A stretch of 64,000 bases of DNA, taken from the NCBI GenBank assembly GCA_965200485.1, contig CBDAUD010000002.1:242743-306742 (forward strand), read 5' to 3'. The DNA is from a bacterium (GTDB lineage: Bacteria; JAAXHH01). The notes under the pieces are model-generated. The model had not been told where the DNA came from. It ran no database searches and saw only the letters and a list, made by a program, of their open reading frames with translations. The position numbers were made by a program, and so were the translations under genes. Positions 14,224 through 60,863 of the stretch are shown here, in pieces (the stretch's first letter is position 1; every line of letters starts with the position of its first letter).

Positions 14224-14285
14224 CGCATTATCCGTATCCGTTTATGTTCATGGTTTCAAGTTCACGGCCGGTCCGTTGTGGACCC

Positions 14286-14339
14286 GGTACCATAGCCCGA
14301 GGAACGCTGCGCGGTACCGTAGCCCGCGGAATGCTGCAC
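14286..14339. repeat. Two adjacent imperfect 27-bp direct repeats upstream of the SBP_5 gene
   Basis: ggtaccatagcccgaggaacgctgcgc at 14286-14312 and ggtaccgtagcccgcggaatgctgcac at 14313-14339 (22/27 identical). Lies 60-115 bp upstream of the minus-strand start at 14223. Confidence 0.75.
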
Positions 14340-33736: not shown

Positions 33737-33833
33737 ACAGACGTTGACGGGCGTCGACACCGATAGGCAAGCAACGGACCAGGAAGACCAAGCCGACAAA
33801 CGGCCCGATCTCGAACCGACAGGCAGGATCAGG

Positions 33834-35231
33834 ATGAATTACTCGCATATACTTCCTTGCATCTCGTTGGTTTTCGCGTTCTTGTGGACGGAAGCAGCAG
33901 GCGCCGAGGCGTCCCGGGTCGATGTCATCAAGTTGACCGGTCCGATCGGCCCTGTCAGCGTCCAGCAGGTGTCGTCGGCAATCGAAAGGGCGGAAGACGA
34001 CCAGTCCGAATGTCTGGTGGTCATGCTCGATACGCCCGGCGGCCTCCTGGACTCCACCCAGTTGATCATCAAGGACATACTCGCGTCCAATGTACCTGTC
34101 GTGGTCTACGTGGCGCCCAGCGGTGCGGGCGCCGGTTCGGCCGGGGTGTTCATCACCATGAGTGCGCACGTCGCCGCAATGGCCCCGGGCACGAGCATCG
34201 GAGCTGCCCATCCGGTGAGCGCCGGAGGCGCGGTGGCCGACTCCGTCATGAACGAGAAAATCGAGAACTTTTCCGCAAGCTACATCCGTTCCATTGCCGA
34301 AAAGCACGGACGCAATGCCGACTGGGCGGAGCAAGCCGTGCGGAAGAGCGTGGCGCTGACCGATCGGGAGGCCGTGGAGCAGAACGTCGTGGACCTGAAC
34401 GTCGCCACGCTGGACTCCCTGCTCGTGCGGATCGACGGTACCGTCGTTGAAGTGCGCGAGGGCAGCCGCGTATTGCGCACGAAGGACGCCGAGGTGCAGA
34501 TCAGGGAAATGGATTGGCACCACCGGGTGTTGCACATCCTCTCCAATCCCAATATCGCGTATCTCCTGATGATGCTGGGGTTCTACGGGCTCATCTACGA
34601 ATTCATCAATCCCGGCGCCATTTTTCCGGGCGTCGTGGGGGGCATGTGCGTGATCATCGGGCTTTTCGCCCTGCAGACGCTGCCCATCAACTATGCCGGG
34701 CTCCTGCTGCTCCTGCTCGGTTTGGGCCTGTTCGTCACGGAACTGTTCGTAGTCAGTGGCGGCCTCCTGGCCCTCGGAGGCGCCATTTCCTTTACAATCG
34801 GTTCGATGATGCTCATCGATTCGCCGTATCCCTATCTGCGCATATCCCTGTACGCCATCATTCCGGCCGTGATCGCGACCGGGACGTTCGTGCTGTTCGC
34901 CGCGGGCTATGCCCTGAGGGCGCAGAAGCGGCGCACGACCACGGGTGACCAGGGCCTGATCGGAGAGACGGGCGACGCCCGCACGGCCGTGGATGCCCGA
35001 AGCGGAAGCGTCTTCGTCCACGGCGAGTACTGGTCCGCGACAAGCGCCGTCCCTGTCGAATCCGGCGCGCCTGTCCGGGTCGTCGGGATCAACGGGTTGC
35101 GATTGCAGGTGGAGCGCATGGCATCCAAAAAGGACGCAACGGAACCGGACGAAGCGAAGCAAGACAAGACGGAACGAGACACAACGGAACCGGACGAAAC
35201 GAAACCAGGGGAGGACTCTCATGGGGTTTGA
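33834..35231 (+). CDS. NfeD-family membrane-bound serine protease (ClpP-class)
   Basis: Start at MNYSHILPC (signal peptide), ATG 33834. ClpP-like periplasmic domain (DTPGGLLDS; SAGAGSAG). Central multi-TM segment. C-terminal OB-fold-like region. Immediately followed by an SPFH gene (canonical NfeD-stomatin operon). Confidence 0.8.
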
Positions 35232-36063
35232 CGGATTTTCACTAACGACGATCGTGCTCGTCCTGTTCGTAATCATCCTTTTCACCAATGCGGTCAAGAT
35301 ACTGCGCGAGTACGAGCGGGGCGTGATCTTCCGGCTCGGCCGCCTGTCCAAGGCCCTGATCGGAAAGAACGGACCGGGCATCGTGGTGCTGATCCCCGGG
35401 ATCGACAAAATGGAGAAGGTCAGCCTGCGGACCGTGACCAAGGACGTGCCCGCCCAGGACGTGATCACCCGGGACAACGTGTCCATCAAGGTCAATGCCG
35501 TGATATACTTCCGGGTCCTGGACCCGGAGAAGGCGGTCACCGAGGTGGAGGACTTTCTGCAGGCGACCCACCAGCTGGCCCAGACCTCGTTGCGGAGCGT
35601 ACTCGGACAGGTGGAACTGGACGACCTGCTGTCCAACCGGGACAAGATCAACGAAGACCTGCAGCTCCTGCTGGACCAGCAGACCGAGCCGTGGGGCATC
35701 AAGGTTTCCATGGTCGTGATCAAGAACGTCGACCTGCCCCTTGAGATGCAGCGGGCCATGGCCAAGCAGGCGGAAGCGGAGCGGGAACGCCGCGCCAAGG
35801 TCATCAATGCGCTGGGCGAGCAGCAGGCCGCGGAGAAACTCTCCGAAGCCGCCCATGTCATGGGTACCCATCCCGTAGCCGTGCAACTGCGCTACCTCCA
35901 GACCCTTTCGGTCGTGGCCGCGGAGAATAACTCCACCACGGTCTTTCCCGTCCCCATCGATCTATTCAAGCCCTTCGTGGATGCGTTGAAACCGGCGGTT
36001 TCGGGAGATCCGCGGGAGCCGGATTCCGGCGGGCCGGCGGGCCGGAGTCAGGAGGCCGGATAG
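35221..36063 (+). CDS. SPFH/band-7 (stomatin-like) protein
   Basis: Start ATG 35221 overlapping the NfeD stop. N-terminal TM helix followed by an SPFH domain ([15 protein letters not shown]...; VIYFRV; coiled-coil [16 protein letters not shown]). Confidence 0.85.
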
Positions 36064-41961: not shown

Positions 41962-42281
41962 ACGCGACCGCCTGTCCGCAATGCGGCCTGTCGGCTGGCG
42001 AATTCGGCAAATCGGGCCAGCTGGGATGTGCCGCGTGCTACCGCGCTTTCAGGGGCACGCTGGTACCGCTTTTCAAACAGATTCACGGCTACGCGTATCA
42101 TCAAGGCAAGATTCCGGAATCCGATCCGTCGCGTCAGGAGACGCGACGCGCGCTGATCGACCTCAGACGCGCATTGAAAAAGGCGGTCGGCCAGGAAGCC
42201 TACGAACAGGCGGCGAAGCTGCGGGACCGAATAAACGAACTGGAACGCCGTCCGAAATCGCATCGGGCGATGCATGGATGA
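41958..42281 (+). CDS. mcsA: Protein-arginine kinase activator McsA-like (zinc-ribbon plus UVR domain)
   Basis: 107-aa ORF. CPQCG...CAACY zinc ribbon. C-terminal UvrB/C-like helix (QEAYEQAAKLRDRINELE). Start overlaps the lolD stop (ATGA) and the stop overlaps the mcsB start. Confidence 0.7.
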   Translation: MNATACPQCGLSAGEFGKSGQLGCAACYRAFRGTLVPLFKQIHGYAYHQGKIPESDPSRQETRRALIDLRRALKKAVGQEAYEQAAKLRDRINELERRPKSHRAMHG

Positions 42282-43341
42282 AAACGTGGAAAATCCGTAT
42301 CCGGACCTGGCGGGCAAGGTGCCGCAGTGGTGCGAGCCCAAGGGCGAAGCAGCCGAGTTGGTCATCAGCAGCCGTGCCCGTCTGGCCCGCAACCTCACTA
42401 CACTGCCCTTTGTCCATCGCACGATAAAGAACGAGCGATCCCGCGTGATCGAACAGGTGGACCGGGCCGTGCGGGCTTGCGGCGATGGGACGCAGGCCGT
42501 TTATCTGCCGTTGCCGGCCAGTCCGAAGCTGGACCACAAAGTGCTGGTCGAACGGCGTCTGATCAGTCCGGCTCTGGCGGGCAGCCCACGTCCCGCCGGC
42601 GTTTTCGTCGGTGCCGGCGAAACCTACAGTGTCATGGTCAACGAGGAAGACCATCTGCGGATTCAGGCCATCAGGGGCGGTCTGCAGGTGCACGCCGCAT
42701 GGCGGGAAGCGGACAAAATCGATACCGAACTGGGTAAAACACTTGATTTTGCCTTCTCGGAGGAGTTTGGTTACCTAACAACCTGTCCGAGCAACGCGGG
42801 CACCGGCATGCGCCTGTCCGTGCTGGTCCACCTGCCCGGGCTGACCCTTGCGGACCAGATGGGTCATCTGATTCGCGCCATGGAAGAGATCGGATTCACC
42901 GTGCGCGGCCTGCACGGCGAAGGTACCGGTGGGTCGGGAAACATGTACCAGGTATCGAACCAGGGGACCCTGGGACATACCGAACAGGAGATCGTCGAGC
43001 GGCTCGACCGGGTGGCCCGGAGGCTGGCGCAGTACGAAAGGCGGGCCGGCGACGCGTTGCTCGACCAGGCGAGACGGCAGACCGAAGACCGGGTAGCCCG
43101 GTCCTATGGTCTGCTGAAGCATGCCCGTCTGCTGACCGAGGAAGAAGCCCTGGATGCCCTTTCCATGCTGAGAATGGGCGCGTACCTGGGCCTTCTGGAT
43201 GGCATGGAACCGATGCTTTTCAATCGTTTGCTGATATCGATGCAGCCAGCCCATGTGCGTATGGAATCCGGCCGTTCCCTGACCGGCGAGGAACTGGACG
43301 AACGGCGCGCCGAGCTGGTTCGCGAAACCATGGAAAACTGA
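42274..43341 (+). CDS. mcsB: Protein arginine kinase McsB (ATP:guanido phosphotransferase family)
   Basis: 355-aa ORF. Phosphagen-kinase catalytic core (SEEFGYLTTCPSNAGTGMRLSV, the CP(S/T)N(L/I)GT guanidino-kinase signature) and ...HGEGTGGSGNMYQVSNQ.... Confidence 0.85.
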   Translation: MDENVENPYPDLAGKVPQWCEPKGEAAELVISSRARLARNLTTLPFVHRTIKNERSRVIEQVDRAVRACGDGTQAVYLPLPASPKLDHKVLVERRLISPALAGSPRPAGVFVGAGETYSVMVNEEDHLRIQAIRGGLQVHAAWREADKIDTELGKTLDFAFSEEFGYLTTCPSNAGTGMRLSVLVHLPGLTLADQMGHLIRAMEEIGFTVRGLHGEGTGGSGNMYQVSNQGTLGHTEQEIVERLDRVARRLAQYERRAGDALLDQARRQTEDRVARSYGLLKHARLLTEEEALDALSMLRMGAYLGLLDGMEPMLFNRLLISMQPAHVRMESGRSLTGEELDERRAELVRETMEN

Positions 43342-43405
43342 AGATCGCCCGATGAAGCACTGCCGGGATCTCCAAACCCGGTTTGCGAAGGGAGGGATGC
43401 GCAAG

Positions 43406-45877
43406 ATGCCCCAGGGAAACAACAAATTCACGGAACGGTTCAAGCGGGTCATGCACATCGCCCGAGAAGAAGCCGCCAGACTGCAACACGACTACATCGC
43501 CACGGAGCACCTGCTGCTGGCCTTCATCCGGGACGGCGAGGGGACCGCGGCGGCCATGCTGCGCAACATGGGCATCGATCTTGAAGACCTCAGGCAGTCC
43601 ATCGAAGAGGCCACGGTATCCCAGTCCAGCGCGCTGACCATCGGCCAGGTGCCTTTCACCCCGAGGGCGAAGCAGGCTCTGGAAATCGCCGCCCACGAAG
43701 CAAACAACATGAAGTCGAAGTATGTGGGTACCGAACACCTCCTGCTCGCGCTGGTGCGGGACAAGCAGGGCATCGCGTCCCAGATTCTGTCGACCTACGA
43801 CGTAACCTTCGAAAAGATCAAGGAAGAGATCCAGAATATCCAGAGCGACCGTTCCGTCACGAAGAAGGACGCGCAGCGCAGCCGGACCCCCTTTCTCGAC
43901 CACTTCGGCCGCGATCTCACCGAGATGGCGCGCGGAGGCAAGCTGGATCCGGTCATCGGCCGCGACAAGGAAATCGAGCGTGTCACGCAGGTTCTGAGCC
44001 GCCGCAAGAAGAACAACCCGGCCCTGATCGGAGAACCGGGTGTCGGCAAGACCGCCATCGCCGAGGGCCTCGCGCAGCGTATCGTGCAGCGCAACGTGCC
44101 CCAGATTCTGGAAAACAAGCGGGTGGTTACCCTCGACATGGCGTCCATCGTGGCCGGCACCAAGTACCGGGGACAATTCGAGGATCGCCTGAAGTCCATT
44201 ATGACCGAAATCATCAAGTCGGATGAAGTGATCATCTTCATCGACGAACTGCATTCGATCGTCGGCGCGGGCGGCGCAGAGGGCAGTCTCGACGCCTCCA
44301 ATATCTTCAAGCCGGCCCTCGCCCGGGGCGAATTGCAATGCATCGGCGCTACGACGCTCGACGAGTATCGCAAGCATATCGAGAAAGACGGCGCGCTCGA
44401 GCGCCGTTTCCAGAAGGTGATCGTCGATCAGCCGAGTATCGAAGAAACCTTCGACATGCTCAAGGGCCTGCGCGGCCGGTTCGAGGAATACCACCACGTG
44501 AAGTACACCGACGATGCGCTCGAGTTTGCGGTAAAGCAGTCCGACCGGTACATCAAGGATCGTTTCCTGCCGGACAAGGCCATCGACATCATCGACGAGG
44601 CGGGCTCCAAGGCGCAGCTCTCCAAGATGACGGTCCCGGGCGAAATCAGGGAGGTGGAGGAAAAACTCCAGACCATCCAGGACAAGAAGGTGGAAGCCGC
44701 CCAGCAGCAGGAATTCGAACGGGCAGCGGCGCTGAGGGACCGCCAGGAAGAGGTGCAGCGCGAGTACGACGAGGCTTTCATGGCCTGGCGCAAGCGGGTG
44801 ACCGACGAGGTGGTGGTGGTCACGGAAAGCGACATGGCGCAGATCATCTCCAGCATGACGGGTATTCCCATCTTCCGGCTCGAAGAGCAGGAATCCAGGA
44901 GCCTCCTGCGGATGGAGGACACCCTCAGAAAGCGGGTCATCGGACAGGACATGGCCATCCAGGTGTTGAGCAAGGCCATCCGGCGCTCGCGCTCCGGTCT
45001 GAAGAATCCCGACCGTCCCATCGGTTCTTTCCTGTTTCTGGGACCCACCGGCGTGGGCAAGACGGAACTGGCCAAGATCCTGGCTTCCTTTCTCTTCCAG
45101 GACGACGACTCCCTGATCTTCATCGACATGTCCGAGTACATGGAGAAATTCAACGTGTCGCGCCTGATCGGAGCGCCTCCGGGATACGTAGGATTCAACG
45201 AAGGCGGTCACCTTTCGGAGAAAGTGCGGCGCAAACCCTATTCCGTTATTCTGCTCGACGAAGTGGAGAAGGCGCATCCGGACGTATTCAACATCCTGCT
45301 GCAGATCCTGGACGAAGGGACGCTGACCGACAGCAACGGTCGCCGGGTGGACTTCCGGAATACCATCATCATCATGACGTCGAACCTGGGTACCCGGGAC
45401 ATCAACAAGGCCGGCGGGCTTGGTTTCCAGCAGGAAGGGACCCGGGTCGACTATGCCAAGATGGAGGCAACGGTCAAAGAGGAGATGAAACGCCTCTTCA
45501 ATCCGGAGTTTCTGAACCGGCTCGACGAGGCGGTGGTGTTCCGTCAGCTGAATCGGTCCGATATCTCCCGGATCATCGATCTCCAGCTAAGGGAAATCAA
45601 CGACAGGATGGCCGAACGCGGCATCACGATCTCGCTTACGCAGAGCGCCCGGGAACTGCTCTCCGAAAAAGGCTATGATCCGGTATACAACGCCCGGTTC
45701 ATGAACCAGACCATTCAGCGCATGCTCGAGGATCCGCTTGCCGAGGAGCTGCTGAAAGGCAAGTTTCACGACGGCGACGAAATCAGGGTCGGCAAAAAGG
45801 GAGAAAACCTGACGTTCTACAAGGCCGCAAACTCGGATTCCGACAAGACCCCCGTACTTTCCGAATCAGGAGCCTGA
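43406..45877 (+). CDS. clpC: ATP-dependent Clp protease ATP-binding subunit ClpC (class I AAA+ with N-terminal Clp repeats and UVR linker)
   Basis: Start at ATG 43406 ([15 protein letters not shown]...). Two Clp-N repeats. NBD1 [11 protein letters not shown] motif. NBD2 GPTGVGKTE. ClpP-binding loop. Confidence 0.9.
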
Positions 45878-46027: not shown

Positions 46028-48448
46028 GTGTCTGACATGCCTTTCAAGTACCTGAAATCCTTCCTGGGCTGGGCCCTTGCGGGTGGAATGCTCGTCGCCA
46101 TGGCCCTGGCTCCCGCTGCAGCAAACGGACAACAGCAGCAACCCCTGATCGCCGATGTGGTGATCGAGGGGCACGCCAACGTCGATGAACCGCTGATCCG
46201 GTCGGTGGTCACCCTGAAGCCGGGGAATCTCTACAATCCCCGGGACGGCGCGACCACTATCAAGCAACTCTATCGACTGGGTCTGTTCGAAGACATTCGC
46301 ATCTATGCCGGCATGGGCGCAACCGGTTTGGTCGTCACGATCAATGTGAAGGAATACCCCCTGCTGGACCGTATCGAATTCGAAGGAAACAACAAGCTCA
46401 AGGATGACGAACTCGAGCGGATATCGGGTATCTTCCAGGGTCAGGCGCTGAGCCCCTTTCGAAGAAAAAGCGTGGTCGACAACCTCACCCGGGCCTATTA
46501 CGAGAAAGGGCATCTGCTTGCTACGCTGAAACCGCGCGTACTTGTGGAAAGAAACAACGCGATTCTGCGGGTTGAAATTGACGAGGGAGAGAAGGTCAAG
46601 CTGGGCGAAGTCTTCATCGAAAACAACGTATCCGTCCCGGAAAAACGCCTGCAGGAAGCCTTTCGGAAGAAATCCGACACGGAAGAAGACCATTTCTGGA
46701 AAGAGGGGGATCTTCGAAGAGAACGCCTGCTGGACCAGTTTGAGAAGATCGCGGAGGAATATCGCAAGGATGGATTCCGCGACGTGGAGGTCCTGGAGGA
46801 TACCCTGTGGTTCAGTGAAGACCGGAAGCGGATGTACCTCAAGGTCAAAATCGACGAGGGCAGAAGGTACTACCTCGGCGATGTGGCTTTCGAAGGAAAC
46901 ACGAAATTCACCTCCGAACAGCTGTCCAGCCTCATCAAGATCGACGCGGGCAAGCCGTTCAACGAAGAAGAATACCAGGAGAGCGTAGCGACCATCTACG
47001 AGGCCTATGGCGAACTGGGCTACCTGTACGCCACGCCGATCGCCCGCGAGTCCGCGGCCAACGACTCTACCATCGACCTGCAATTCGCCGTCAACGAGGG
47101 GGAACCGGCCAGCGTGCATCGCATCGACATCGTGGGCAATACCAAGACCAAGGACAAGGTCATCCGCCGCGAGCTGCTGATTAAGCCGGGACAGACTTTT
47201 CGCCGCTCTTTGCTCCTCAGAAGCCAGCGCGACGTATTCCAGCTGAACTTTTTTCAGGATGTCCAGCCCGGACTGCAACCCCTGCCGGACGGGGACGTGG
47301 ACATTTCCTTCAATGTACTGGAGAAGCCGACGGGCACGGCAAACGCCGGCGCCGGGTACAGCGGGCTTGACGGACTCGTGGGTACCATTTCCATGATCAT
47401 CCCCAACTTTCTGGGCAACGGACAAGGCCTGAATTTCAGCTGGGAGTTCGGCAACCGCCGCAATTCCGTTTCCGCCAGTTTCGTCGAACCCTGGCTGTTC
47501 GACACGCCTACCAGCGCCGGCATCGATCTCTTCCGGACCAACAGGCAGTGGTTCCGGGAATTCAATATCATACAGAAAGGCTTCGGGACGTCCTTGGGGC
47601 GGCGTTTCCGGGGAACCTACTGGCGGATCAGGGGGGCGTACAGGTTCTTCGACCTTGCGTACTCCGGTTTCGGCGAGCAATACTACGCTGCAGCGCTGGA
47701 AGACTCCACCCTCACCGATGCCCAGATCGCCGTGATTAACGGCAACATACGTCAGCGCGAATCCCTGGAATCCAACAGCGGCCTGACCAGTCAGGTATCC
47801 TTCTCCGTGACGCGGGACAGCCGCGATTTCCCCCAGTTCGCCACACAGGGTATGCGCCAGACTTCCCGCAGTGACGTCGCTGGCGTCGGCGGCGACGTGA
47901 AATACCTGAAGCAGACGCTGGAATCCGATTTCTATTTTCCCGTTTTCAGGGGTACGTCGGTATCGCTGAGGGGGAGATACGCCGTGGCGTTGAACCCCTT
48001 CAACGACAGAGAAGTGCCGTTTTTCGAGCGCTTCTTTCCGGGCGGCGTCAGTTTCGACGGGTTGATCCGGGGTTATGGCAACAACTCCGTGGGGCCCTAT
48101 ACGGAGTTGGGGGACGGGACCAGCAGCCGGGACGGTGGACGGGTGATGAGCATACTTACCCTGGAGTATCAGGTCCCCATCATCGATCAGCTCAGCTCGC
48201 AGCAGCCCGTTTACGCCGTGGCGTTTCTCGAGGCCGGAAACGCCTGGGCGAAACTGTCCGAAGCATCGCCGCTGCCGGGCAATATGAAGAAATCGGCCGG
48301 CGTCGGCATTCGGGTGATCATGCCGCTGGTCGGTCTATTGGGATTCGACGTCGGTTACGGGTTCGACAAACCGTCCGATCCCGTCCAGGCCCTTACGAAG
48401 AGCCGGAGCGGGTGGCATACGCATTTTCAACTGGGACAGGTGTTCTGA
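46028..48448 (+). CDS. bamA: Outer-membrane protein assembly factor BamA (POTRA repeats plus Omp85 barrel)
   Basis: 806-aa ORF. Signal peptide. Multiple POTRA-like repeats (IEGHANVDEPLIRSVV...). C-terminal 16-strand barrel ending in aromatic-rich GYGFDKP...HFQLGQVF. Confidence 0.9.
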   Translation: MSDMPFKYLKSFLGWALAGGMLVAMALAPAAANGQQQQPLIADVVIEGHANVDEPLIRSVVTLKPGNLYNPRDGATTIKQLYRLGLFEDIRIYAGMGATGLVVTINVKEYPLLDRIEFEGNNKLKDDELERISGIFQGQALSPFRRKSVVDNLTRAYYEKGHLLATLKPRVLVERNNAILRVEIDEGEKVKLGEVFIENNVSVPEKRLQEAFRKKSDTEEDHFWKEGDLRRERLLDQFEKIAEEYRKDGFRDVEVLEDTLWFSEDRKRMYLKVKIDEGRRYYLGDVAFEGNTKFTSEQLSSLIKIDAGKPFNEEEYQESVATIYEAYGELGYLYATPIARESAANDSTIDLQFAVNEGEPASVHRIDIVGNTKTKDKVIRRELLIKPGQTFRRSLLLRSQRDVFQLNFFQDVQPGLQPLPDGDVDISFNVLEKPTGTANAGAGYSGLDGLVGTISMIIPNFLGNGQGLNFSWEFGNRRNSVSASFVEPWLFDTPTSAGIDLFRTNRQWFREFNIIQKGFGTSLGRRFRGTYWRIRGAYRFFDLAYSGFGEQYYAAALEDSTLTDAQIAVINGNIRQRESLESNSGLTSQVSFSVTRDSRDFPQFATQGMRQTSRSDVAGVGGDVKYLKQTLESDFYFPVFRGTSVSLRGRYAVALNPFNDREVPFFERFFPGGVSFDGLIRGYGNNSVGPYTELGDGTSSRDGGRVMSILTLEYQVPIIDQLSSQQPVYAVAFLEAGNAWAKLSEASPLPGNMKKSAGVGIRVIMPLVGLLGFDVGYGFDKPSDPVQALTKSRSGWHTHFQLGQVF

Positions 48449-48500
48449 CGTATAGGTCCAGAGGTTCTCCGGAGCGATCCGGTATTGCCAGGAGGAATAA

Positions 48501-49037
48501 ATGGTTTCACCGAGCGGTTCGACTTTGACTCGTATCACGGCGGCGCTTGCCTTCGTCTTGCTGTTGCCGGCCATGGCGCAGGGGCAGGAGCTGAAGATCG
48601 GCTATCTGGACATGGAGCGTATTCGCCAGTCCTACCAGGGGTTCAAGGATGCGGAGGAGGCCTTTCAGAAGGTGGCGAGGGAGGTGCAGGGACAGGTCCA
48701 GGACAGGCAACAGGAAGTCGAAATGCTGAAGCAGCAGTACGAAGCCCGGAAGACCATGTTGACTGCGGCCAGGCGGCAGCAGGACGAGCAGCACATCCTG
48801 CAGAAGGAACAGGAGTTGATGCAGTTCGCCCAGAGTTCGCAGATGCAGCTCGCACAGCAGGAAGTGGAACTGACCAGGCCGTTGCAGGAGAGCATTTTCA
48901 ACGTGGTGCAGACCCTGGCCAAGGCGGAGAACTTTACGTACATCTTCGATGCCGGGTCGCTTATATACGTGGACCCGCTGCGTGCGCAGGACCTCACGGG
49001 ATCGGTTCTGGAGGAACTGCAAAAGGAAGTCAAGTAG
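48501..49037 (+). CDS. skp: OmpH/Skp periplasmic chaperone
   Basis: 178-aa ORF. Signal peptide ([16 protein letters not shown]), long coiled-coil Q/E/K-rich tentacle region, position between bamA and lpxD. Confidence 0.8.
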
Positions 49038-49044
49038 CCGATTG

Positions 49045-50073
49045 ATGCGTCAGAGACTAGCCGAAATAGCAACCCAGGTAGAGGGCGAACTCATCGGTGA
49101 CGGCTCCAGTATCATCGAGCGCGTCGCTCCGCTTGACGAGGCCGGCGCGGGTTCGATTTCCGTTCTGATCAACGCCCGGCAGAGCCGGCGGCTGGCGTCG
49201 ACCGGAGCCTCGGCGGTCATCGTCTCGCGGGAGATTGACGACGCGCCGGTTCCCATCATACGCGTGGCCTCCCCCGAAGTAGCTCTTGTGACCCTGTTGT
49301 CAACGTATTTCGCCGGCCATCGTCCCGCGGAGCGCGGTGTTCATCCGACCGCCGTCATTCACCCGTCCGCCGACGTGGACGAAGAGGCGGACATCGGCCC
49401 CCATGTATCGATCGGACCGCATACGTCGGTGGCCCGAAACACCTGCATAGGCGCAGGGGTGGCCATCGGCGCCCATTGCCGGATAGGTGCGGGCGCTTGG
49501 ATTTTCGCCGGCACGACGCTCTACGATCGGGTTTCCCTGGGCGACGGCGTGGTCGTCCACGGCGGAGCGGTGATCGGCAGCGATGGATTCGGCTATTTCC
49601 AGGGAAGCGGCGGCGCCAGGAAAATCCCGCAGGTCGGCGGCGTTGAAATCGGCGACGAGGTGGAGATCGGCGCGAATACGACGATTGACCGTGCGACCAT
49701 GGGCATGACCCGTATCGGTCGCGGGACGAAGATCGACAATCTGGTTCAGATCGGCCACAACGTCGTTATCGGGGATCATGTCACGATTTGTGCACAGGTG
49801 GGTATCGGGGGGAGCACTGTGGTCGAAGCAGGATCCCTGATCGGCGGTCAGGCCGGACTCTCCGACCATATCAAGATCGGCCCCGGATCCAGGATCGGCG
49901 GCCAGGCGGGCGTGACCAAGTCCATTCCCGCCGGATCGACGGTGTCCGGATATCCTGCCCGTCCCCATAACCAAGCCCGAAGGATCGAAGCCGCCGTAAA
50001 ACGGCTGCCCGACCTGTCGCAGGAGATGCAGACGCTGGAGGCGCGGATAAGGGCGCTGGAAGGCCGGGAGTAG
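49045..50073 (+). CDS. lpxD: UDP-3-O-(3-hydroxyacyl)glucosamine N-acyltransferase
   Basis: Start at ATG 49045 (MRQRLAEIA). Left-handed beta-helix hexapeptide repeats ([19 protein letters not shown]...). Catalytic His region (GSDGFGY). C-terminal coiled coil. Confidence 0.9.
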
Positions 50074-50157
50074 CGGTTTGCGCAGCGCGGACCGTGTGCT
50101 GCGGTGCCCATGAGGAAGTATTTCGACAAGCCACCAGCGAAGAGCATAGTCGCACCC

Positions 50158-51624
50158 ATGTTCAAACAACAACGTACCGTTTCATCCTCTGCGTCCGTGA
50201 CGGGGATCGGTCTGCATACCGGTGGACAGGCGACACTGACGTTCAAGCCGGGTACCGTCAACAGCGGGATCCGTTTTGTTCGCGTCGACCATCCCGACCG
50301 GATGGAGATTCCGGCCGACATAGATTACGTGGTCGACACCACCAGGGGAACGAACCTGGAGCGCGACGGGGTTCGGATACACACCGTCGAGCATGTCCTG
50401 GCCGCGGTGGCGGGACTGGGCGTCGACAATCTCAGCATCGAAATCAATGGGGCGGAGCCGCCGATTTGCGATGGCAGCGCCATGCCCTTCGTCGATGCGC
50501 TGATGGAAGCCGGGATCGTCGAACAGGACGCGCCCCGGGTATACCTGGAACTGGAGAATCCGGTGCTTTACTCGGAGCGGAAGAACGGCCTGTTGAAGGA
50601 ACTCGTTGCCATGCCTTCCGACGATTTCCACCTTACCTACATGGTCGACTACCAGAAGTCGAATCTCGCCAGCCAGCACACGGTGCTCTATTCGCTGGAA
50701 GACGAATTCGTCACCGAGTTCGCACCTGCGCGGACCTGGACCTTTCTGAGCGATGTCAAGGCGTTGCGCGAAAGAGGGCTGATCAAGGGGGGCAGCCTGG
50801 AAAGCGCGGTCGTCATAACCGACATGGACCTGTCGGCGGGCGAGCTCGACGAGTTGAAGGACCTGTTCGGCGTGGAAGACCGGGTGGTGATCGGCGAGAA
50901 CGGTATTGTAGGCGCCCAGCCGCTGCGATTCGACAACGAGCCGTGCCGGCACAAGGCCCTCGACCTCATCGGCGACCTGGCGCTGCTCGGAGCGCCGCTT
51001 AGCGCCCAGGTGTTCGGAGCGCGCTCCTCCCATTCCGCCAATGTCGAGCTGGTGCGCAGAATACGCAAAGCCTGCGTAAGGAAGCAGCCGGAAACCGTGC
51101 CGGAGACCTCGGCCCGGACCGTGCCGGAGACCTCGGCCCGGACCGTGCCGGAGACCTCGGCCCGGACCGTGCCGAAAACGGTGTTGGATATTGAAGACAT
51201 CCTTCGCCTCCTGCCCCATCGCTATCCCTTTCTGCTCATCGACCGGGTGATCGGCATGGAACCCGGAAAACGCCTGGTCGCCCTGAAGAATGTGACCATC
51301 GACGAACCTTTCTTCGCGGGGCACTTCCCGGGCCATCCCGTTATGCCGGGCGTCCTGATTGTAGAAGCCATGGCCCAGGCGGGTGGCCTGCTGCTGCTCA
51401 ATACGATCGACAACCCGAAATGCAAGATGGCGTATTTCATGGGAATCGACCGGGCGCGGTTTCGCAAGCTGGTCAAACCCGGGGACCAGATACGCTTCGA
51501 GCTGGAGATGATCCGAATGCGCATGCATGCCTGCAAGATGGAAGGCAAGGCCTACGTGGACGATGAACTGGTAGCCGAAGCCGCGCTCATGGCGATGGTT
51601 TCCGACCGGGAGACGCCACAGTGA
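50158..51624 (+). CDS. lpxC/fabZ: Bifunctional UDP-3-O-acyl-GlcNAc deacetylase / 3-hydroxyacyl-ACP dehydratase (fused LpxC-FabZ)
   Basis: LpxC N-terminus [22 protein letters not shown] (alternative upstream GTG at 50104). LpxC HKxLD-like motif ([12 protein letters not shown]). Linker containing 3x PETSARTV. FabZ hot-dog domain ([14 protein letters not shown]...[16 protein letters not shown]). Confidence 0.9.
51097..51168 (+). repeat. Perfect 24-bp tandem repeat x3 (gtgccggagacctcggcccggacc) encoding (V)PETSART repeats in the LpxC-FabZ interdomain linker
   Basis: Three identical adjacent 24-mers at 51097-51120, 51121-51144 and 51145-51168, with partial copies on both sides (ccggaaaccgtg upstream, gtgccgaaaacg downstream). 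In frame and a multiple of 3. Confidence 0.9.
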
Positions 51625-52430
51625 CGGAAGTTACCGCCGAAGTCCAGATTCATCCCACGGCCATCGTGCATCCCGACGCGGAGTTGGGCCCCGGCTGCAG
51701 TATCGGTCCCTACACGATCGTCGAACCCAACGTCACCATCGGAGCGGACACGCAGATTGCGTCCGGCGCGATGATCGGCGCCCATACCCGCATCGGCGCG
51801 GATTGCAGAATCTATCACGGGGCCGTGGTGGGGTCGATCCCGCAGGATCAGAAGTTCATCGGCGAGCAGTCCACCCTCGAGATCGGGGATCGGACTTCCA
51901 TCCGGGAATTCGCCACGTTGAATCGCGGGACCAGTGCCCTGGGGAAGACGGTCATCGGAAGCGATACCCTGATCATGGCCTACGTGCATGTCGCCCACGA
52001 CTGCGTGATCGGCAACCGGGTTATCCTCGCCAACGGCACGCAACTGGGCGGTCACGTGGAAATCGAGGATTTCGCCATAACGGGCGGCCTGGTGGCGGTC
52101 CACCAGTTCGTTCGAATCGGTCGCCACGCTTTCATCAGCGGCGGCGGAAAGGCGAAGAAAGACATCGCGCCATACGTCAAATACGGCCGCGAACCGCTGA
52201 AGCCGGTTTCGCTCAACACCATCGGACTGAAACGCTGCGGTTTCACCGACGAAACCCTCCGTACCATGAAACAGGCTTTCAGACTGCTCTACCGGTCCTC
52301 GCGCAATGTCTCGCAGGCCGTGGAAGCCGTAACGGCGGAAGTTGAACAGACCGATGAAGTCGGATATCTGCTCGCCTTCATACGGGAGAGCGTCCAGCGC
52401 AGCAAGCGGCACGGGCGCGGCCTGACCTGA
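51621..52430 (+). CDS. lpxA: Acyl-ACP--UDP-N-acetylglucosamine O-acyltransferase
   Basis: 269-aa ORF overlapping the lpxC/fabZ stop. Hexapeptide-repeat beta-helix ([25 protein letters not shown]...) with the LpxA C-terminal helical domain. Confidence 0.9.
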
Positions 52431-52446
52431 CTTCCCGATGATCACC

Positions 52447-52481
52447 CGGGGTCCATACCATGAGCAGGATCGTGGACCCCG
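52447..52481 (+). other. 9-bp-stem hairpin (cggggtcca / tggaccccg, 17-nt loop) immediately downstream of lpxA
   Basis: Perfect 9-bp inverted repeat 17 nt after the lpxA stop. Not followed by a T-run, so not a canonical intrinsic terminator. Confidence 0.35.
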
Positions 52482-52531
52482 AAGCCCCATAGTCCATCCG
52501 TCCCGTAGTCAAAAAGAAAGGAACCGTTCCC

Positions 52532-54295
52532 ATGTCGGTCGCTTCAAACGGAGGGCGTGCCAAGCGTATCGATTCGCCGATGCAGCCTCCCTCGTGGGCT
52601 TTTCTGCAAAGAGCCCTGATCAGTCAGCTGGAAGAAGCCGTGGAGGCCTTTTACGATCACTACTTCGACGAACGCGGCTACCTGCTGTGCGTGCCCCGCT
52701 GGGGCGGAGACGACGGACCGGACGACGCGGCGGAGAACTTCGCGAACTGGCCGGAACTCTATGCGCTCGGCGCTTCGGAGCGGGTTTACGATATGTACAA
52801 GCACGCCTGGGACGGACACCTGCTGCAGTACACGGAAGCGAAGACCACCGAGGTGGAGTTCGCCCGGGACGGCATGTACTTCAAGGAATTCCCGACGATG
52901 TTCGACTGGATGCACAACGGGGAAGGCTTCACGGCCTTCTTCCTCCAGGGCTTGTGCGATCCGCACGACAAGAAGTTCGTGGACCGCACGCGGCGGTTCT
53001 GCGGTTTCTACATGGGCGAAGATCCCATCGCCGACAATTACATCCCCGAACATCGCGTGATCAAGAGCATGTTCAACGGAAGCCGGGGATCCATGCTTCG
53101 CAAGGCAACCGGGCTCGACTGGGCGGGTGATCCCATCGAGGTCGAAGGCCGGTTCAAACCGGGTCACGGGGAGCGCAACTACGAGGAGATGGTGGCCCAT
53201 TTCAAGGATTACAATGATGTGGCCGGGGACCATCCCCTGAACATGGGCGTCACCACGATGACCCTGAACGCCTACATGATCGACGGAGACGAGACCTACG
53301 GCGCGTGGACGAGAGACTACCTGGATGCCTGGGTGGAGCGCACCGAACGGAACAACGGGATCATTCCCACGAATATCGGCCTGGACGGAACCATCGGAGG
53401 CGAGTGCGGTGGAAGGTGGTACGGCGGCGCGTACGGCTGGGGTTTTTCAACCATCGTTCCACAGACCGGCGAAGTGGCGCACCGACCGTACTTTCTGATC
53501 CGGGTCCACTGGAGCTTCGGCAACGGCCTGCTGCTCACCGGCGACCAGAAGTACATAGACACCTGGCGTGGCGTCATAGACGGGGTCAACGCGAACAGCA
53601 AGGTGGAGAACGGCCAGACGCTCTATCCCCGCATGCATGGAGACGACGGATGGTACGATTACCGTCCCGAACCCTTCGACGTCGGCGCGGAGCAGGTCTA
53701 CTACTGGTCCATGGACCGGCGCGATCTCGAACGGCTTCCCATGGAGGGCTGGATCGCCTTTCTGGAGGGGAAGAATCCGGACTATCCCGTGGAAGCGTTG
53801 CGGGAGGCTCTCTCCACGGTCCGGTCGAAGATGCAGCGGATGCAGGACGACCTGTCGTCACCGGATACACGCATGTCCGACGATCCCAATGGCACGAACC
53901 CCGCGGAGCTCGATGCCCTGATCCGGCTCATGCTCGGCGGCATGCCCACGCAACATTTCGGCCATCCGCTGCACTGCCGGTTCCGGTATTTCGATCCGGC
54001 CCGGGTGCGTCCAGGCATGCCGGCGGATGTGGCCGCCCTCGTGGAGGAACTCCACGACGACAGCGCGGTGGTCACGCTGGTGAATACGAACCAGGTATCC
54101 GCCCGGACGGTGATCGTCCAGGGCGGCGCGTACGGCGAGCACCAGATTCGGGAAGTGCGTGACGAAAACGGATCGACCCCGGTCGACGGATCGAGTTTTA
54201 CGGTGACGCTAGAACCCGGATGCGGAAGTAGGCTGCATGTAGGCATGGATCGCTACGCCAACCGGCCCTCGTTCGCCTTCCCCTGGGAGCGATAG
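52532..54295 (+). CDS. Hypothetical conserved protein (587 aa), function unknown
   Basis: Long ORF with good coding-frame GC3 bias and W/Y/G-rich globular composition. No motif recognised. Confidence 0.5.
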   Translation: MSVASNGGRAKRIDSPMQPPSWAFLQRALISQLEEAVEAFYDHYFDERGYLLCVPRWGGDDGPDDAAENFANWPELYALGASERVYDMYKHAWDGHLLQYTEAKTTEVEFARDGMYFKEFPTMFDWMHNGEGFTAFFLQGLCDPHDKKFVDRTRRFCGFYMGEDPIADNYIPEHRVIKSMFNGSRGSMLRKATGLDWAGDPIEVEGRFKPGHGERNYEEMVAHFKDYNDVAGDHPLNMGVTTMTLNAYMIDGDETYGAWTRDYLDAWVERTERNNGIIPTNIGLDGTIGGECGGRWYGGAYGWGFSTIVPQTGEVAHRPYFLIRVHWSFGNGLLLTGDQKYIDTWRGVIDGVNANSKVENGQTLYPRMHGDDGWYDYRPEPFDVGAEQVYYWSMDRRDLERLPMEGWIAFLEGKNPDYPVEALREALSTVRSKMQRMQDDLSSPDTRMSDDPNGTNPAELDALIRLMLGGMPTQHFGHPLHCRFRYFDPARVRPGMPADVAALVEELHDDSAVVTLVNTNQVSARTVIVQGGAYGEHQIREVRDENGSTPVDGSSFTVTLEPGCGSRLHVGMDRYANRPSFAFPWER

Positions 54296-57359: not shown

Positions 57360-58994
57360 TCAGTATCTTGAAGTATGCTCTTCCACTTTGGTGATCGTCT
57401 CGATCACGGCCGGCCGCCCTGTCTGGTTGGCTTCCACGGCCCGGCGGATTGCGGGGGCGATCTGGTCGGGCGCGACCACCTTCTCCGCGTGGGCGCCCAG
57501 TCCGGCCCCGATGGCGGCATAATCTCCTCCCAACCGGTTGCTTCCCCACCGTTCCGACGCGTAGGCCATGTGGTGATCGTAGTGCGTCATGACCCCGTTG
57601 TTCAGGACTACCGTGATGATGGGAATCTCCGACCGTACGGCGGTCTCCACGTCGAGGCCGGCCATGCCGAAAGCGGCATCGCCCATGATGTTGATCACCT
57701 GTTTATCGGGATCGGCAATCTTCGCCCCGATGGCCAGTCCCAGTCCGTAGCCGAGCTGCGTGGATGCGCCCCAGCCGATATAGCCCCGGGGCGCATCGGT
57801 GACCCAGAAGGGCGCGAGTTGTTCCCGGGGATAGCCGGAATCATGGGTGATGATCGTTTGCGCGGCGTCCACGACGCCTGCGATCTCGCGGAACACGCGG
57901 TACGGACTCAGGGGAACTTCGTCGGAACAGAACCGGGGTTCCCATTCGGCAAGCCAGGCCCGCTTCAGCCGTGCGATCTCGGGTATCGCGCCCCGATCGT
58001 CATCCCGCGCATTCCCGCCAAGTTGCCGCTTGGCTTCTTCCAGCATCTGCCGCAATACGACGCCGGCGTCGCCCACCGCCCCGTAGTCGATGCGATGCTC
58101 TTTGTTCACGTCTCCGTGGCTGACCACGCACTGGGCCAGCGTGACGCCCGGCGGGACGCTGGTCTTGAAACCGGAGGTCATACTCGTACCGATGCCGAGG
58201 AAGAAATCGGTCTTCTTCATGAACTCGGCCACCATCCGGGAGTGCGAGGCGGCGCCCGTGCCCAGGGACAGGGCGTGGGTCTCCGGAAAAGCGCTCTTGC
58301 CCGCCAGCGTGGTCATGACCGGGGTTTTTGTCCATTCCGAGAATTCGATCAGCGCATCGGTGGCTTTGGCGTACAATACGCCCTGTCCCGCGCTGATTAC
58401 CGGACATTCCGCCCGGAGCAGGGCGGAGACCAGGTCCCGGACATCCTCCGGGGAAGCGCCGCTCCTGAACGGTTTCACGGGCGTGTAGTCGAAGGCGCTA
58501 TCGGGTATCTCCTCCTCGCCCACATCGCCGGGAATCTCGAGCATGACCGGACCTGGCTTGCCCTGCTTCAGCAGGCTGTAGGCGCGTCCCATCATCTCCG
58601 GTATCCGGGCGGCCGAGTTGATGTTGGACACCCATTTGGTGATCCCGCGGTAGTTTTCTACCGATTCGAACGCCAGACCGGCGCCTGCGCGGGACCGCGG
58701 CGGACCGCCGGGCAGCAGCAGGACCGGTACGGAATCCGCATAGGCCTGCGCCACCCCGCCGAAGGCGTTCTCCGCGCCGGGTCCCATCTGCATCATGAAG
58801 ACCCCGACCGTGTCTCCGTTCCGTATCCTGCTGTATCCGTCCGCAATGTTCACGCCGGCCCGTTCCTGCCGGCAGAGTATGGGGCGAAGACCCTCTTTCG
58901 CGCAGGCGTCGATAAGGGGATGGTGCGGGAAGCAACTGAACCAGTCCAGCCCCTCCGCCTTCAGGATTTTTGCAATCGCCTCGTTGCCGGTCAT
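57360..58994 (-). CDS. Thiamine-pyrophosphate-dependent enzyme, acetolactate synthase/benzoylformate decarboxylase-like
   Basis: 544-aa ORF. N-terminal Pyr domain, central domain, and C-terminal PP domain with TPP-binding motif GDAAFGMAGLDVETAVRSEIPIITVVLNNG (GDG-X24-NN type). Confidence 0.85.
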   Translation of the reverse strand: MTGNEAIAKILKAEGLDWFSCFPHHPLIDACAKEGLRPILCRQERAGVNIADGYSRIRNGDTVGVFMMQMGPGAENAFGGVAQAYADSVPVLLLPGGPPRSRAGAGLAFESVENYRGITKWVSNINSAARIPEMMGRAYSLLKQGKPGPVMLEIPGDVGEEEIPDSAFDYTPVKPFRSGASPEDVRDLVSALLRAECPVISAGQGVLYAKATDALIEFSEWTKTPVMTTLAGKSAFPETHALSLGTGAASHSRMVAEFMKKTDFFLGIGTSMTSGFKTSVPPGVTLAQCVVSHGDVNKEHRIDYGAVGDAGVVLRQMLEEAKRQLGGNARDDDRGAIPEIARLKRAWLAEWEPRFCSDEVPLSPYRVFREIAGVVDAAQTIITHDSGYPREQLAPFWVTDAPRGYIGWGASTQLGYGLGLAIGAKIADPDKQVINIMGDAAFGMAGLDVETAVRSEIPIITVVLNNGVMTHYDHHMAYASERWGSNRLGGDYAAIGAGLGAHAEKVVAPDQIAPAIRRAVEANQTGRPAVIETITKVEEHTSRY

Positions 58995-59071
58995 GCGTGC
59001 TCCTTGACTGTTGCGCCGGCCCCGGAACCGTTGGCGGCATAACCGGGACGGGGCTTGCCGTGTTCCGCCGC

Positions 59072-59941
59072 CTACTCTCCTTCGCGCCGCGGCGCGGACA
59101 GGGTCTGCGCGTCGTCGTTGATCAACGGTCGGTTGTAGACATAGGGCGGTTCCAGTACGGATTGCTGCGCGGCCGTGAGTTCATTCGTCCAGTCCGGCAA
59201 TCCGGTTCGGTACACGCCGCCCGTGTAGTGCATGTACTTGGGTGTATACCGGTAGAACAGCGAGCGTCGCTCTCCCCGACCCTGCCAGGGCAGCGTCCCA
59301 TGGGTCGTCGCCTCGTTGAAAATCACCAGGTCGCCTGCGTTCATGGCAACATGGTGGACGATCTGCTGGTCGGCCTCGTACCGGGAGATGTTTTCCGGCA
59401 TGGGAAAATTGGCCTTGTGGCTGCCCGGGACGACGCACAGGCCGCCATCGCCCGGATGCACGTCGTTCAACTGGTACTGGCAGTTGATCAGTCCGCAGCG
59501 CATGGCGCCGTTGTGGTAGCGGTAAGAACGCGATCCGTTGAACTCCGCCTGCCCCGAACCGTGGAGACGCAGTCCCTCGGTACCCGCCGAAGAAGTAAAG
59601 ATGAAGGGGGTGTGGTCCAGCTTCCAGCCCCGGCCCAGCAGCGTGTTCAGATACGGGATGATCCGCGGATTGGCCAGGAGGTCGTAAAAGGGCCGGCACC
59701 AAGGATGGGGCCAGGTCAGCATGCCGTTGTAGAGACCGCGGAGCCGCTTGCCTTTCAGCGCCTCGCTCGTGCTGCTCGCCGTGTCGTCCTTTCGCTTGTC
59801 GCGGTTGGCGTCCAGGGCCTCGTTCAGCGCCCGGACCTGTTCCGCCGAAAGGGCCTTGCGCACCACAATGAAGCCCTGCAGGTCGAAGAGGTACTTCTCA
59901 TGGGGCGCCATGGTGGCGTACGATGTGGCGGGCTGTTCCAT
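59072..59941 (-). CDS. Phytanoyl-CoA dioxygenase (PhyH) family Fe(II)/2OG oxygenase
   Basis: 289-aa ORF. PhyH-like core (VHPGDGGLCVVPGSHKANFPMP; NEATTHG). Confidence 0.8.
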   Translation of the reverse strand: MEQPATSYATMAPHEKYLFDLQGFIVVRKALSAEQVRALNEALDANRDKRKDDTASSTSEALKGKRLRGLYNGMLTWPHPWCRPFYDLLANPRIIPYLNTLLGRGWKLDHTPFIFTSSAGTEGLRLHGSGQAEFNGSRSYRYHNGAMRCGLINCQYQLNDVHPGDGGLCVVPGSHKANFPMPENISRYEADQQIVHHVAMNAGDLVIFNEATTHGTLPWQGRGERRSLFYRYTPKYMHYTGGVYRTGLPDWTNELTAAQQSVLEPPYVYNRPLINDDAQTLSAPRREGE

Positions 59942-59977
59942 ACCGTTTGGGCGTTTGTCCGTCTTCGCCTTTGTATT

Positions 59978-60863
59978 TCAAATCCCCTCCCGGGGGGGAC
60001 GAACGACCGATTCGCCGTCATCCTCGATCAACGGCCGGTTGTAAATGTACGGCGGTTCGAGCACCGCGCGCTGGGCATCGGTGATTTCTTTCGTCCATTC
60101 GGGAATGCGGGTCTCGTAGACGCCGCCGGCGTAGTGCATGTACTTCGGGATGTACCGGTGGAGCACGCAGCGCCGTTCGCCCTTTCCCTTCCAGGGCAGT
60201 GCACCGTGGGTCGTCGCCTCGTTGAAGATCACCAGGTCGCCGGCCTCTACCGTGACGTGATCGAAGATCTCCTGGTGGTCCTCGTAATGGCGGACGTATC
60301 CCGGCATGGGGAAATTGGCCTTGTGGCTGCCCGGAATCACGGTCAAACCGCCGTCGCCCGGATGCACGTCGGTCAGGTAGAACTGACAGACGACCAGCCC
60401 GCTCCGCATCCGCCCGTCGTCGTACATGTAGTAGGTGGATCCGGCGAACATCCCCGTGCTGTTGCCGTGAAAAGGGCGTGCCCTGGGCGCCCGGTTTCGA
60501 AGTGAGCACGTCGATGTTGTGGTCGAGCTTCCAGCCCCGCCCCATCATGGTGTTCAGATAGGGCACCAGTTTCGGATGGGAGAGCAGGTTCCGAAAGGGC
60601 TGGCACCACGGCTGTTCCCAGGTAAGCATGCCCTCGTAGTGCACGTACTGCGTTTTCGGTCCCGCCAGCGGCGTGCCGTCCAGCGCGCCGCCCGGCCCGT
60701 GTTCGCTGGTGCGGTCCGGATTGGCGTCGAGGGCGTCGTTCAGGGCTTGCACCTCTTCGGCGGCAAGGAAGTTGCGCACCACGAGAAACCCCTGGAGATC
60801 ATAGAGGTACTTCTCGCGTTCGCTCATCATGGCGAAGTCTTCGGGATCGGCAAACATGGCCAT
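59978..60863 (-). pseudogene. PhyH-family dioxygenase paralog interrupted by a 1-nt frameshift in an A4 run (60470-60473)
   Basis: N-terminal part (MAMFADPEDFAMMSEREKYLYDLQGF...KLDHNIDVLTSKPGAQGTPF) is in one frame. The homologous C-terminal part (HGNSTGMFAGSTYYMY...VHPGDGGLTVIPGSHKANFPMP...) is in the adjacent frame. The junction maps to the aaaa run at 60470-60473. Colinear with the intact paralog at 59072-59941. Confidence 0.65.

Follow-up and report, generated by a model that had tools for sequence, protein, structure and literature searches.

A perfect in-frame 24-nt tandem array in the interdomain linker of a bifunctional lpxC-fabZ gene, probably a young and near-neutral coding minisatellite

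The window, by which we mean the whole 64-kb stretch of DNA that was analysed, carries the genes mcsB, clpC, bamA, skp, lpxD, lpxC-fabZ and lpxA in this order, followed by a gene for a 587-aa protein, and this neighbourhood is a classical envelope cluster (Table 1). The mcsB-like gene, which encodes an ATP:guanido phosphotransferase, and then clpC lie at 42274-45877, immediately upstream of bamA; the pair of a protein-arginine kinase and ClpC is best known from Firmicutes. The lpxD start is probably further downstream than the listed 48949, because LpxD is 352 aa long at the orthologous loci. The 587-aa ORF (52532-54295, plus strand) begins directly downstream of lpxA and has no Pfam match, but since its orthologues at two loci of a sister species, L080 and L081, are annotated as DUF8034 and hold the same position, it is a conserved gene of unknown function that in this clade goes together with the lipid A genes. 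When the segment from 48000 to 54000 was searched against Rfam, no structured RNA or known RNA family was found at E <= 1.

Table 1. Features of the lipid A cluster and of the tandem array in window coordinates
Feature	Position	Strand	Basis
bamA, five POTRA domains and Omp85; start of the conserved outer-membrane/lipid A cluster	46028..48448	+	Domain scan
skp/ompH chaperone gene	48501..49037	+	Domain scan
lpxD, ORF as listed	48949..50073	+	Domain scan
Bifunctional lpxC-fabZ gene, 488 aa	50158..51624	+	Identity to P0001, NCBIfam PRK13188
LpxC deacetylase domain, residues 1-308	50158..51081	+	Pfam, P. aeruginosa LpxC structures, last helix 292-305
Interdomain linker core, residues 309-341, predicted disordered	51082..51180	+	AlphaFold2 pLDDT, columns of alignment A1
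Perfect 24-nt tandem array, 3.4 copies	51094..51174	+	Tandem Repeats Finder, repeat search, shuffles
Repeat unit 1, GTGCCGGAGACCTCGGCCCGGACC (VPETSART)	51097..51120	+	Exact match
Repeat unit 2, identical to unit 1	51121..51144	+	Exact match
Repeat unit 3, identical to units 1 and 2	51145..51168	+	Exact match
Last copy of the 9-nt microhomology ACCGTGCCG; bounds every unit, other copies at 51094, 51118 and 51142	51166..51174	+	
FabZ hot-dog dehydratase domain, residues 342-484	51181..51609	+	Pfam, FabZ structures, TIGR01750 at 343-480
lpxA, 4-nt overlap with the lpxC-fabZ stop codon	51621..52430	+	ORF and domain scan

The mechanically called ORF of the fusion gene spans 50104-51624 on the plus strand, opens at a GTG at 50104, and matches Pfam LpxC (PF03331) and FabA-like/FabZ (PF07977). 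Translation most likely begins not at this GTG but at the ATG at 50158, which is the start of the identical database protein P0001 and of all the homologues, and the NCBIfam alignment likewise opens at residue 1 of this reading. P0001, which lies on a 1.4-Mb contig, is 488 aa long and 100% identical to the window protein. Against the NCBIfam equivalog NF009667 (PRK13188) the protein scored 582.8 bits compared to a cut-off of 465, with residues 1-484 aligned on model positions 1-462 of 464, and this full-length match, together with the presence of both domains and of the conserved residues, places it among the bifunctional LpxC/FabZ enzymes. Such LpxC-FabZ fusions have long been known, as from Chlorobium tepidum (Dillon and Bateman 2004, PMC516016). 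In an alignment of 61 sequences (alignment A1) TVEH (76-79), HKxxD (265-269) and H292 of the LpxC domain were invariant, and residue by residue this holds for E78, H79, H265, K266, D269 and H292 and, in the FabZ domain, for H389 and E403. From what is known of the E. coli and P. aeruginosa enzymes we take the first three to be the catalytic and zinc motifs, and His389 and Glu403 are presumably the active-site pair known from FabZ. From the intact frame and these conserved residues both domains of the fusion are predicted to be active. The PDB matches each covered one domain, and a solved structure of a fused LpxC-FabZ was not found among them. About 17 residues of the LpxC domain (residues 222-238, 50821-50871) have no counterpart in the P. 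aeruginosa LpxC structures; this insertion is modelled as a helix at 227-237 and is kept in the family consensus of the fusions. Two minus-strand ORFs, 50688-51200 and 50182-51528, cross the repeat region and were treated as shadows of the strongly conserved plus-strand gene.

The first-pass annotation had described, at 51085-51180, three adjacent identical 24-mers flanked by partial copies in the linker between the two domains of this gene, and the sequence, the copies, the partial copies and their translation were all verified. Tandem Repeats Finder reported the array with 100% matches, no indels and a score of 162, which makes it the top-scoring tandem repeat of the 64-kb window, where the runner-up scores 85, and a separate repeat search returned the same register with partial copies on both sides. 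The unit GTGCCGGAGACCTCGGCCCGGACC has no further site in the window on either strand even when 3 mismatches are allowed, and its chance expectation is 0.00, there being no match in 100 dinucleotide-preserving shuffles. The array is in frame with 8 aa per unit, the protein unit being PETSARTV. With 3.4 head-to-tail copies, 100% identity and a unit of 24 nt it is a coding minisatellite in the usual sense of at least three head-to-tail copies of high identity with a unit that is a multiple of 3. What is seen at the unit boundaries is the short direct repeat ACCGTGCCG, which occurs at positions 36, 60, 84 and 108 of the actual sequence and still at positions 36 and 60 when the array is collapsed to one copy. 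Since it is thus present twice, 24 nt apart, in the collapsed sequence, it is the kind of direct repeat that seeds slipped-strand duplication. A hairpin or cruciform formed by the array was considered as a promoter of slippage and rejected, because the fold of the single-stranded DNA (-24.6 kcal/mol) was no more stable than that of shuffles (-21.2 +/- 2.5 kcal/mol; z = -1.36, not significant).

Other stretches of the window were also noted. The second-best tandem repeat in the window is a 27-nt x 2.0 duplication with 88% identity at 14285-14337. The acidic C-terminus of an NfeD-family membrane protease (33744-35231) is encoded by a degenerate 15-nt x 5 tandem repeat with 68% matches at 35132-35206 (also 35437-35475), and this looks like another low-complexity tail that was built by small in-frame duplications. 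A same-strand ORF at 34993-36063 overlaps the NfeD-family gene and then extends past it; judged by its sequence, it may encode an SPFH/stomatin-type partner. Two long plus-strand ORFs at 57375-59042 (555 aa) and 58970-60505 (511 aa) have no Pfam match, and a long antisense ORF overlaps the first of them so that the coding strand there is ambiguous.

The in-frame position of the repeat, between the LpxC and FabZ parts of a fused gene, was borne out by the domain matches, the solved structures, an AlphaFold2 model and PRK13188. When compared to solved structures, LpxC homology stops near residues 305-310, FabZ homology begins at 335-344 in the better alignments, and the three units encode residues 314-337. 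The AlphaFold2 model, which was built on the 61-sequence alignment, has a mean pLDDT of 84.2; values below 50 are confined to residues 312-340 (about 36-42) and the C-terminal tip, that is, to one internal low-confidence segment and the end of the chain, and residues 308-344 have no DSSP secondary structure. Because the limits of LpxC and FabZ homology and the low-pLDDT segment enclose the units, the repeat makes up most of the interdomain linker. This linker is predicted to be intrinsically disordered, given its low pLDDT, the lack of secondary structure in the model, its Pro-rich low complexity and its poor conservation in both length and sequence.

Apart from P0001, the best protein among 5.8 billion was 88% identical to the window protein, and a contig-level search of genomes likewise gave relatives that are at most 88% identical. 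The closest relatives found are uncultured metagenome-assembled genomes that are labelled Latescibacterota, Gemmatimonadota or Zixibacteria. The clade consists of uncultured Latescibacterota-like bacteria that are probably associated with sponges or corals, this habitat being suggested by the many isolate record names that point to such hosts; sponge-associated Latescibacterota have been documented (PMC12993501). No conspecific contig was returned by the look-up of contigs that carry the exact protein, P0001 is the sole member of its 90% cluster, and neither the 24-mer unit nor the species-specific left flank TGCGTAAGGAAGCAGCCGGAAACC had a match when each was used to scan metagenomes.

Between the conserved anchors NVELVR and LPHRYPFLL there are 35 residues in most relatives compared to 51 in the window protein. 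At the loci L002-L004, which are 86-87% identical in amino acids, there are also 35 inter-anchor residues, their DNA shows two 24-nt gaps against that of the window, and it aligns with the window codon for codon once two 24-nt blocks are dropped. The linker core of the closest relatives, which are 86-88% identical, is 17 residues, which matches the window sequence when collapsed to one copy. Two of the three units are therefore extra relative to L002-L004, although which two cannot be distinguished as the copies are identical. At another locus, L001, there is one extra 24-nt block that has already diverged and is older than the copies in the window. In the window, on the other hand, a baseline linker has gained two copies in which no base differs, synonymous positions included, and this points to a recent origin or to ongoing homogenisation. 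The first-pass annotation had read the perfect identity of the copies as recent expansion, and the comparison with the relatives agrees with it, as the nearest relatives hold one copy's worth at the homologous codons and the window copies are undiverged. In the one-copy relatives the identity at a lag of 24 nt was 0.48-0.59, whereas most of the remaining lags gave some 0.2-0.4, and lags 12 and 36 were likewise raised; with about 27 positions compared, this is only suggestive of an older 12/24-nt periodicity.

When linker cores were measured on alignment A1, the fusions that are 57-74% identical to the window protein had cores of 14-17 residues that are rich in K/R/Y/Q (e.g. KQITTRYQKKATGDY), whereas in the clade that is 82-91% identical the linker is rich in Pro/Ala/Thr/Glu/Ser and the core is 11-42 residues long, 17 being the commonest length. 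The cores could not be aligned across the 61 sequences, in contrast to their flanks, which are 82-91% identical within the close clade. The longest core, of 56 aa, belongs to a cluster member of the sister species (P0138), and the lengths present are 11, 15, 17, 19, 21, 24, 25, 28, 31, 33, 36, 37, 41, 42 and 56 aa. The units also differ by lineage, PETSARTV in the window and AQPAP, PAPAP or APS-type elsewhere, and because of this the linker expansions must be many independent events. In the sister species, the proteins P0130, P0139, P0008, P0005, P0009, P0140 and P0138 are 98.4-99.5% identical outside the linker and have cores of 31, 36, 36, 36, 41, 41 and 56 aa, respectively, that is, in 5-aa steps. 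Three loci of this species from independent samples, L080, L081 and L018, share 97-98% DNA identity across 4.5 kb and carry 7, 2 and 3 copies, respectively, of the 15-nt unit CCWGCTCAGCCCRCG, some of them as perfect runs of 3-4. Another 5-aa linker step separates P0124 and P0126 from P0121 at 99.5-99.8% flank identity. This shows that the linker is a VNTR hotspot in the clade, with intraspecific copy-number variation in the sister species. By analogy the copy number may also vary within the species of the window, although the sister lineage from which this is extrapolated has another unit (15 nt as against 24 nt).

Two further kinds of variation were seen in the relatives. The C-terminal tails of P0011, P0143, P0146, P0147 and P0129 carry a second variable low-complexity repeat of ADQ/AGQ type (e.g. 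DRADQAGQAGDADQSDQADQADQETTQ), the length of which varies within one 90% cluster (proteins of 475, 493, 499 and 505 aa); the tail of the window protein is short (MVSDRETPQ, 51595-51624). P0133 and P0136, from clusters 2 and 3, run out of frame from inside the linker repeat (e.g. PAPAPPACAVSACARCGPRH) and FabZ would be lost. This is probably a sequencing or assembly indel error in the repeat, the alternative being a real frameshift.

The most probable explanation of these data, and one that we consider likely, is that the array is a young, near-neutral in-frame minisatellite that arose by slippage in a length-tolerant disordered linker and that behaves as a VNTR and not as a switch. The ancestral linker core would have had 17 residues, its 24-nt segment being already flanked by the direct repeat ACCGTGCCG, and slipped-strand mispairing or unequal exchange during replication would then have added two copies of this segment, which encodes a Pro/Glu/Thr/Ser/Ala-rich tether, predicted to be disordered, between the LpxC and FabZ domains. 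Slippage is the mechanism to which the flanking direct repeat points. Variants that are out of frame would lose FabZ and be purged, which would explain why only 15- and 24-nt units are seen, while those that keep the frame would survive, and a weak constraint on tether length would let in-frame gains and losses persist as near-neutral variation. That changes in copy number are neutral is suggested by the intact orthologues, which span diverse linker lengths; a range of 11-56 residues speaks for relaxed constraint and not for a tuned switch.

The same range of lengths bears on the possibility that linker length is tuned adaptively, that is, that copy number is selected because it alters the balance of lipid A and phospholipid by host or niche. 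Tether length could do so by setting the arrangement of the six LpxC domains round the FabZ hexamer or by affecting the proteolytic turnover of the fusion. In E. coli, LpxC and FabZ share the 3-hydroxyacyl-ACP pool and LpxC is controlled via a C-terminal degradation signal, the position of which is occupied in the fusion by the linker, and linker expansion has occurred repeatedly and independently in one clade while the more distant fusions all have 14-17 aa. However, the lengths scatter from 11 to 56 aa without convergence, the unit sequences differ between lineages, the linker is predicted in the AlphaFold2 model to be disordered and without contacts, and the similar variable repeat at the C-termini of relatives points to a general tendency of mutation and not to a function specific to the linker. 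We therefore consider such tuning improbable. A bolder form of it, that the tether is an evolvable length-tuning element in a symbiont clade and the three copies a recently selected allele, strikes us as very improbable; if it were true, gain and loss of repeats would change the spacing or turnover of LpxC round the FabZ oligomer and 3-hydroxyacyl-ACP would be rapidly reapportioned between lipid A and phospholipid synthesis as strains adapt to different hosts.

It also has to be asked if the array is an artefact of assembly or consensus and the true copy number is different, such as one or two. Perfect tandem repeats are well known to collapse or expand in assemblies, and the apparent frameshifts in P0133 and P0136 indicate that errors do occur in this region. 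But the whole array is 81 nt, which fits within one short read and poses no difficulty for long reads, the frame is unbroken, and the identical protein on a 1.4-Mb contig suggests a high-contiguity assembly. Moreover, comparable perfect runs are present in independently assembled relatives, complete chromosomes included, and because expanded linkers are found on multi-megabase contigs and chromosomes (e.g. L008 on OZ220749.1, 3.83 Mb) they are not simply artefacts of short reads. An erroneous copy number is thus a quite unlikely account of the array.

The first-pass annotation had further likened the repeat to contingency or VNTR loci, and while the VNTR part stands for the clade on the strength of the 15-nt unit of the sister species at loci that are 97-98% identical, the contingency part does not. 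A hypermutable switch of expression or of an exposed epitope by phase or antigenic variation has in its favour a general resemblance (tandem, perfect and variable in relatives) and is effectively refuted by the anatomy of the repeat and the gene, leaving it a negligible chance, since a 24-nt in-frame unit cannot toggle the frame, the repeat sits in the coding sequence instead of a promoter, the gene encodes a cytoplasmic housekeeping enzyme of biosynthesis and not a surface, host-interaction or restriction-modification protein, neither the Rfam search nor the fold of the single-stranded DNA gave a structured signal, and lengths of 11-56 residues are tolerated. In simple-sequence contingency loci of the Moxon type, which host-adapted bacteria have in surface or restriction genes, the units are of 1-8 nt and cause frameshifts or changes in promoter spacing; repeat-mediated hypermutability is in principle common to both, but these features do not apply here.

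The near-neutral minisatellite has closer counterparts among bacterial in-frame coding VNTRs such as the X region of the spa gene of Staphylococcus aureus, the 24-bp repeats of which are used for spa typing. In both cases 24-bp, 8-aa units stand head to tail and encode an extended low-complexity spacer, slippage can change the copy number while the frame is kept, and copy number differs between near-identical strains, which in the present case is shown for the sister species with its 15-nt unit and may hold for the species of the window; spa, however, encodes a surface protein with numerous variant repeats, whereas here we have a cytoplasmic enzyme with three identical copies. The linker itself resembles other flexible tethers between domains that are rich in Ala/Pro or Pro/Thr, such as the lipoyl-domain linkers in E2 chains of 2-oxo acid dehydrogenase complexes or the PT linkers of glycoside hydrolases. 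These are likewise disordered and Pro-rich, tolerate changes in length and are prone to repetition, except that here LpxC is joined to FabZ and the Pro/Ala/Thr/Glu-rich composition is clade-specific, the linker of other LpxC-FabZ fusions being short and basic (K/R/Y/Q). Compared to the PRK13188 fusions, the two-domain architecture and the skp-lpxD-lpxC/fabZ-lpxA neighbourhood are the same in the window, but the protein of 488 aa exceeds the 464-position model, mainly in the linker, and against the 14-17 residues of the more distant fusions a core of 17 residues has here been lengthened by 16 through the repeat.

The array thus adds one more case to a familiar class, that of coding VNTRs in flexible linkers, here within a fusion enzyme that is itself well known, and it opens no major question because repeat expansion in disordered linkers is well known. 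Its use may lie in strain typing, as it is a potential frame-safe marker for an uncultured Latescibacterota-like lineage in which one short amplicon across the linker would give the copy number, and in the sister species linker copy number already separates near-identical strains. The linker is also a site that is prone to errors of assembly and annotation, two database relatives appearing to be frameshifted exactly there. Finally, the natural series of linker lengths, about 11-56 residues, indicates that no fixed spacing is needed between LpxC and FabZ in the fusion, and this series is useful for modelling and engineering of the bifunctional enzyme.
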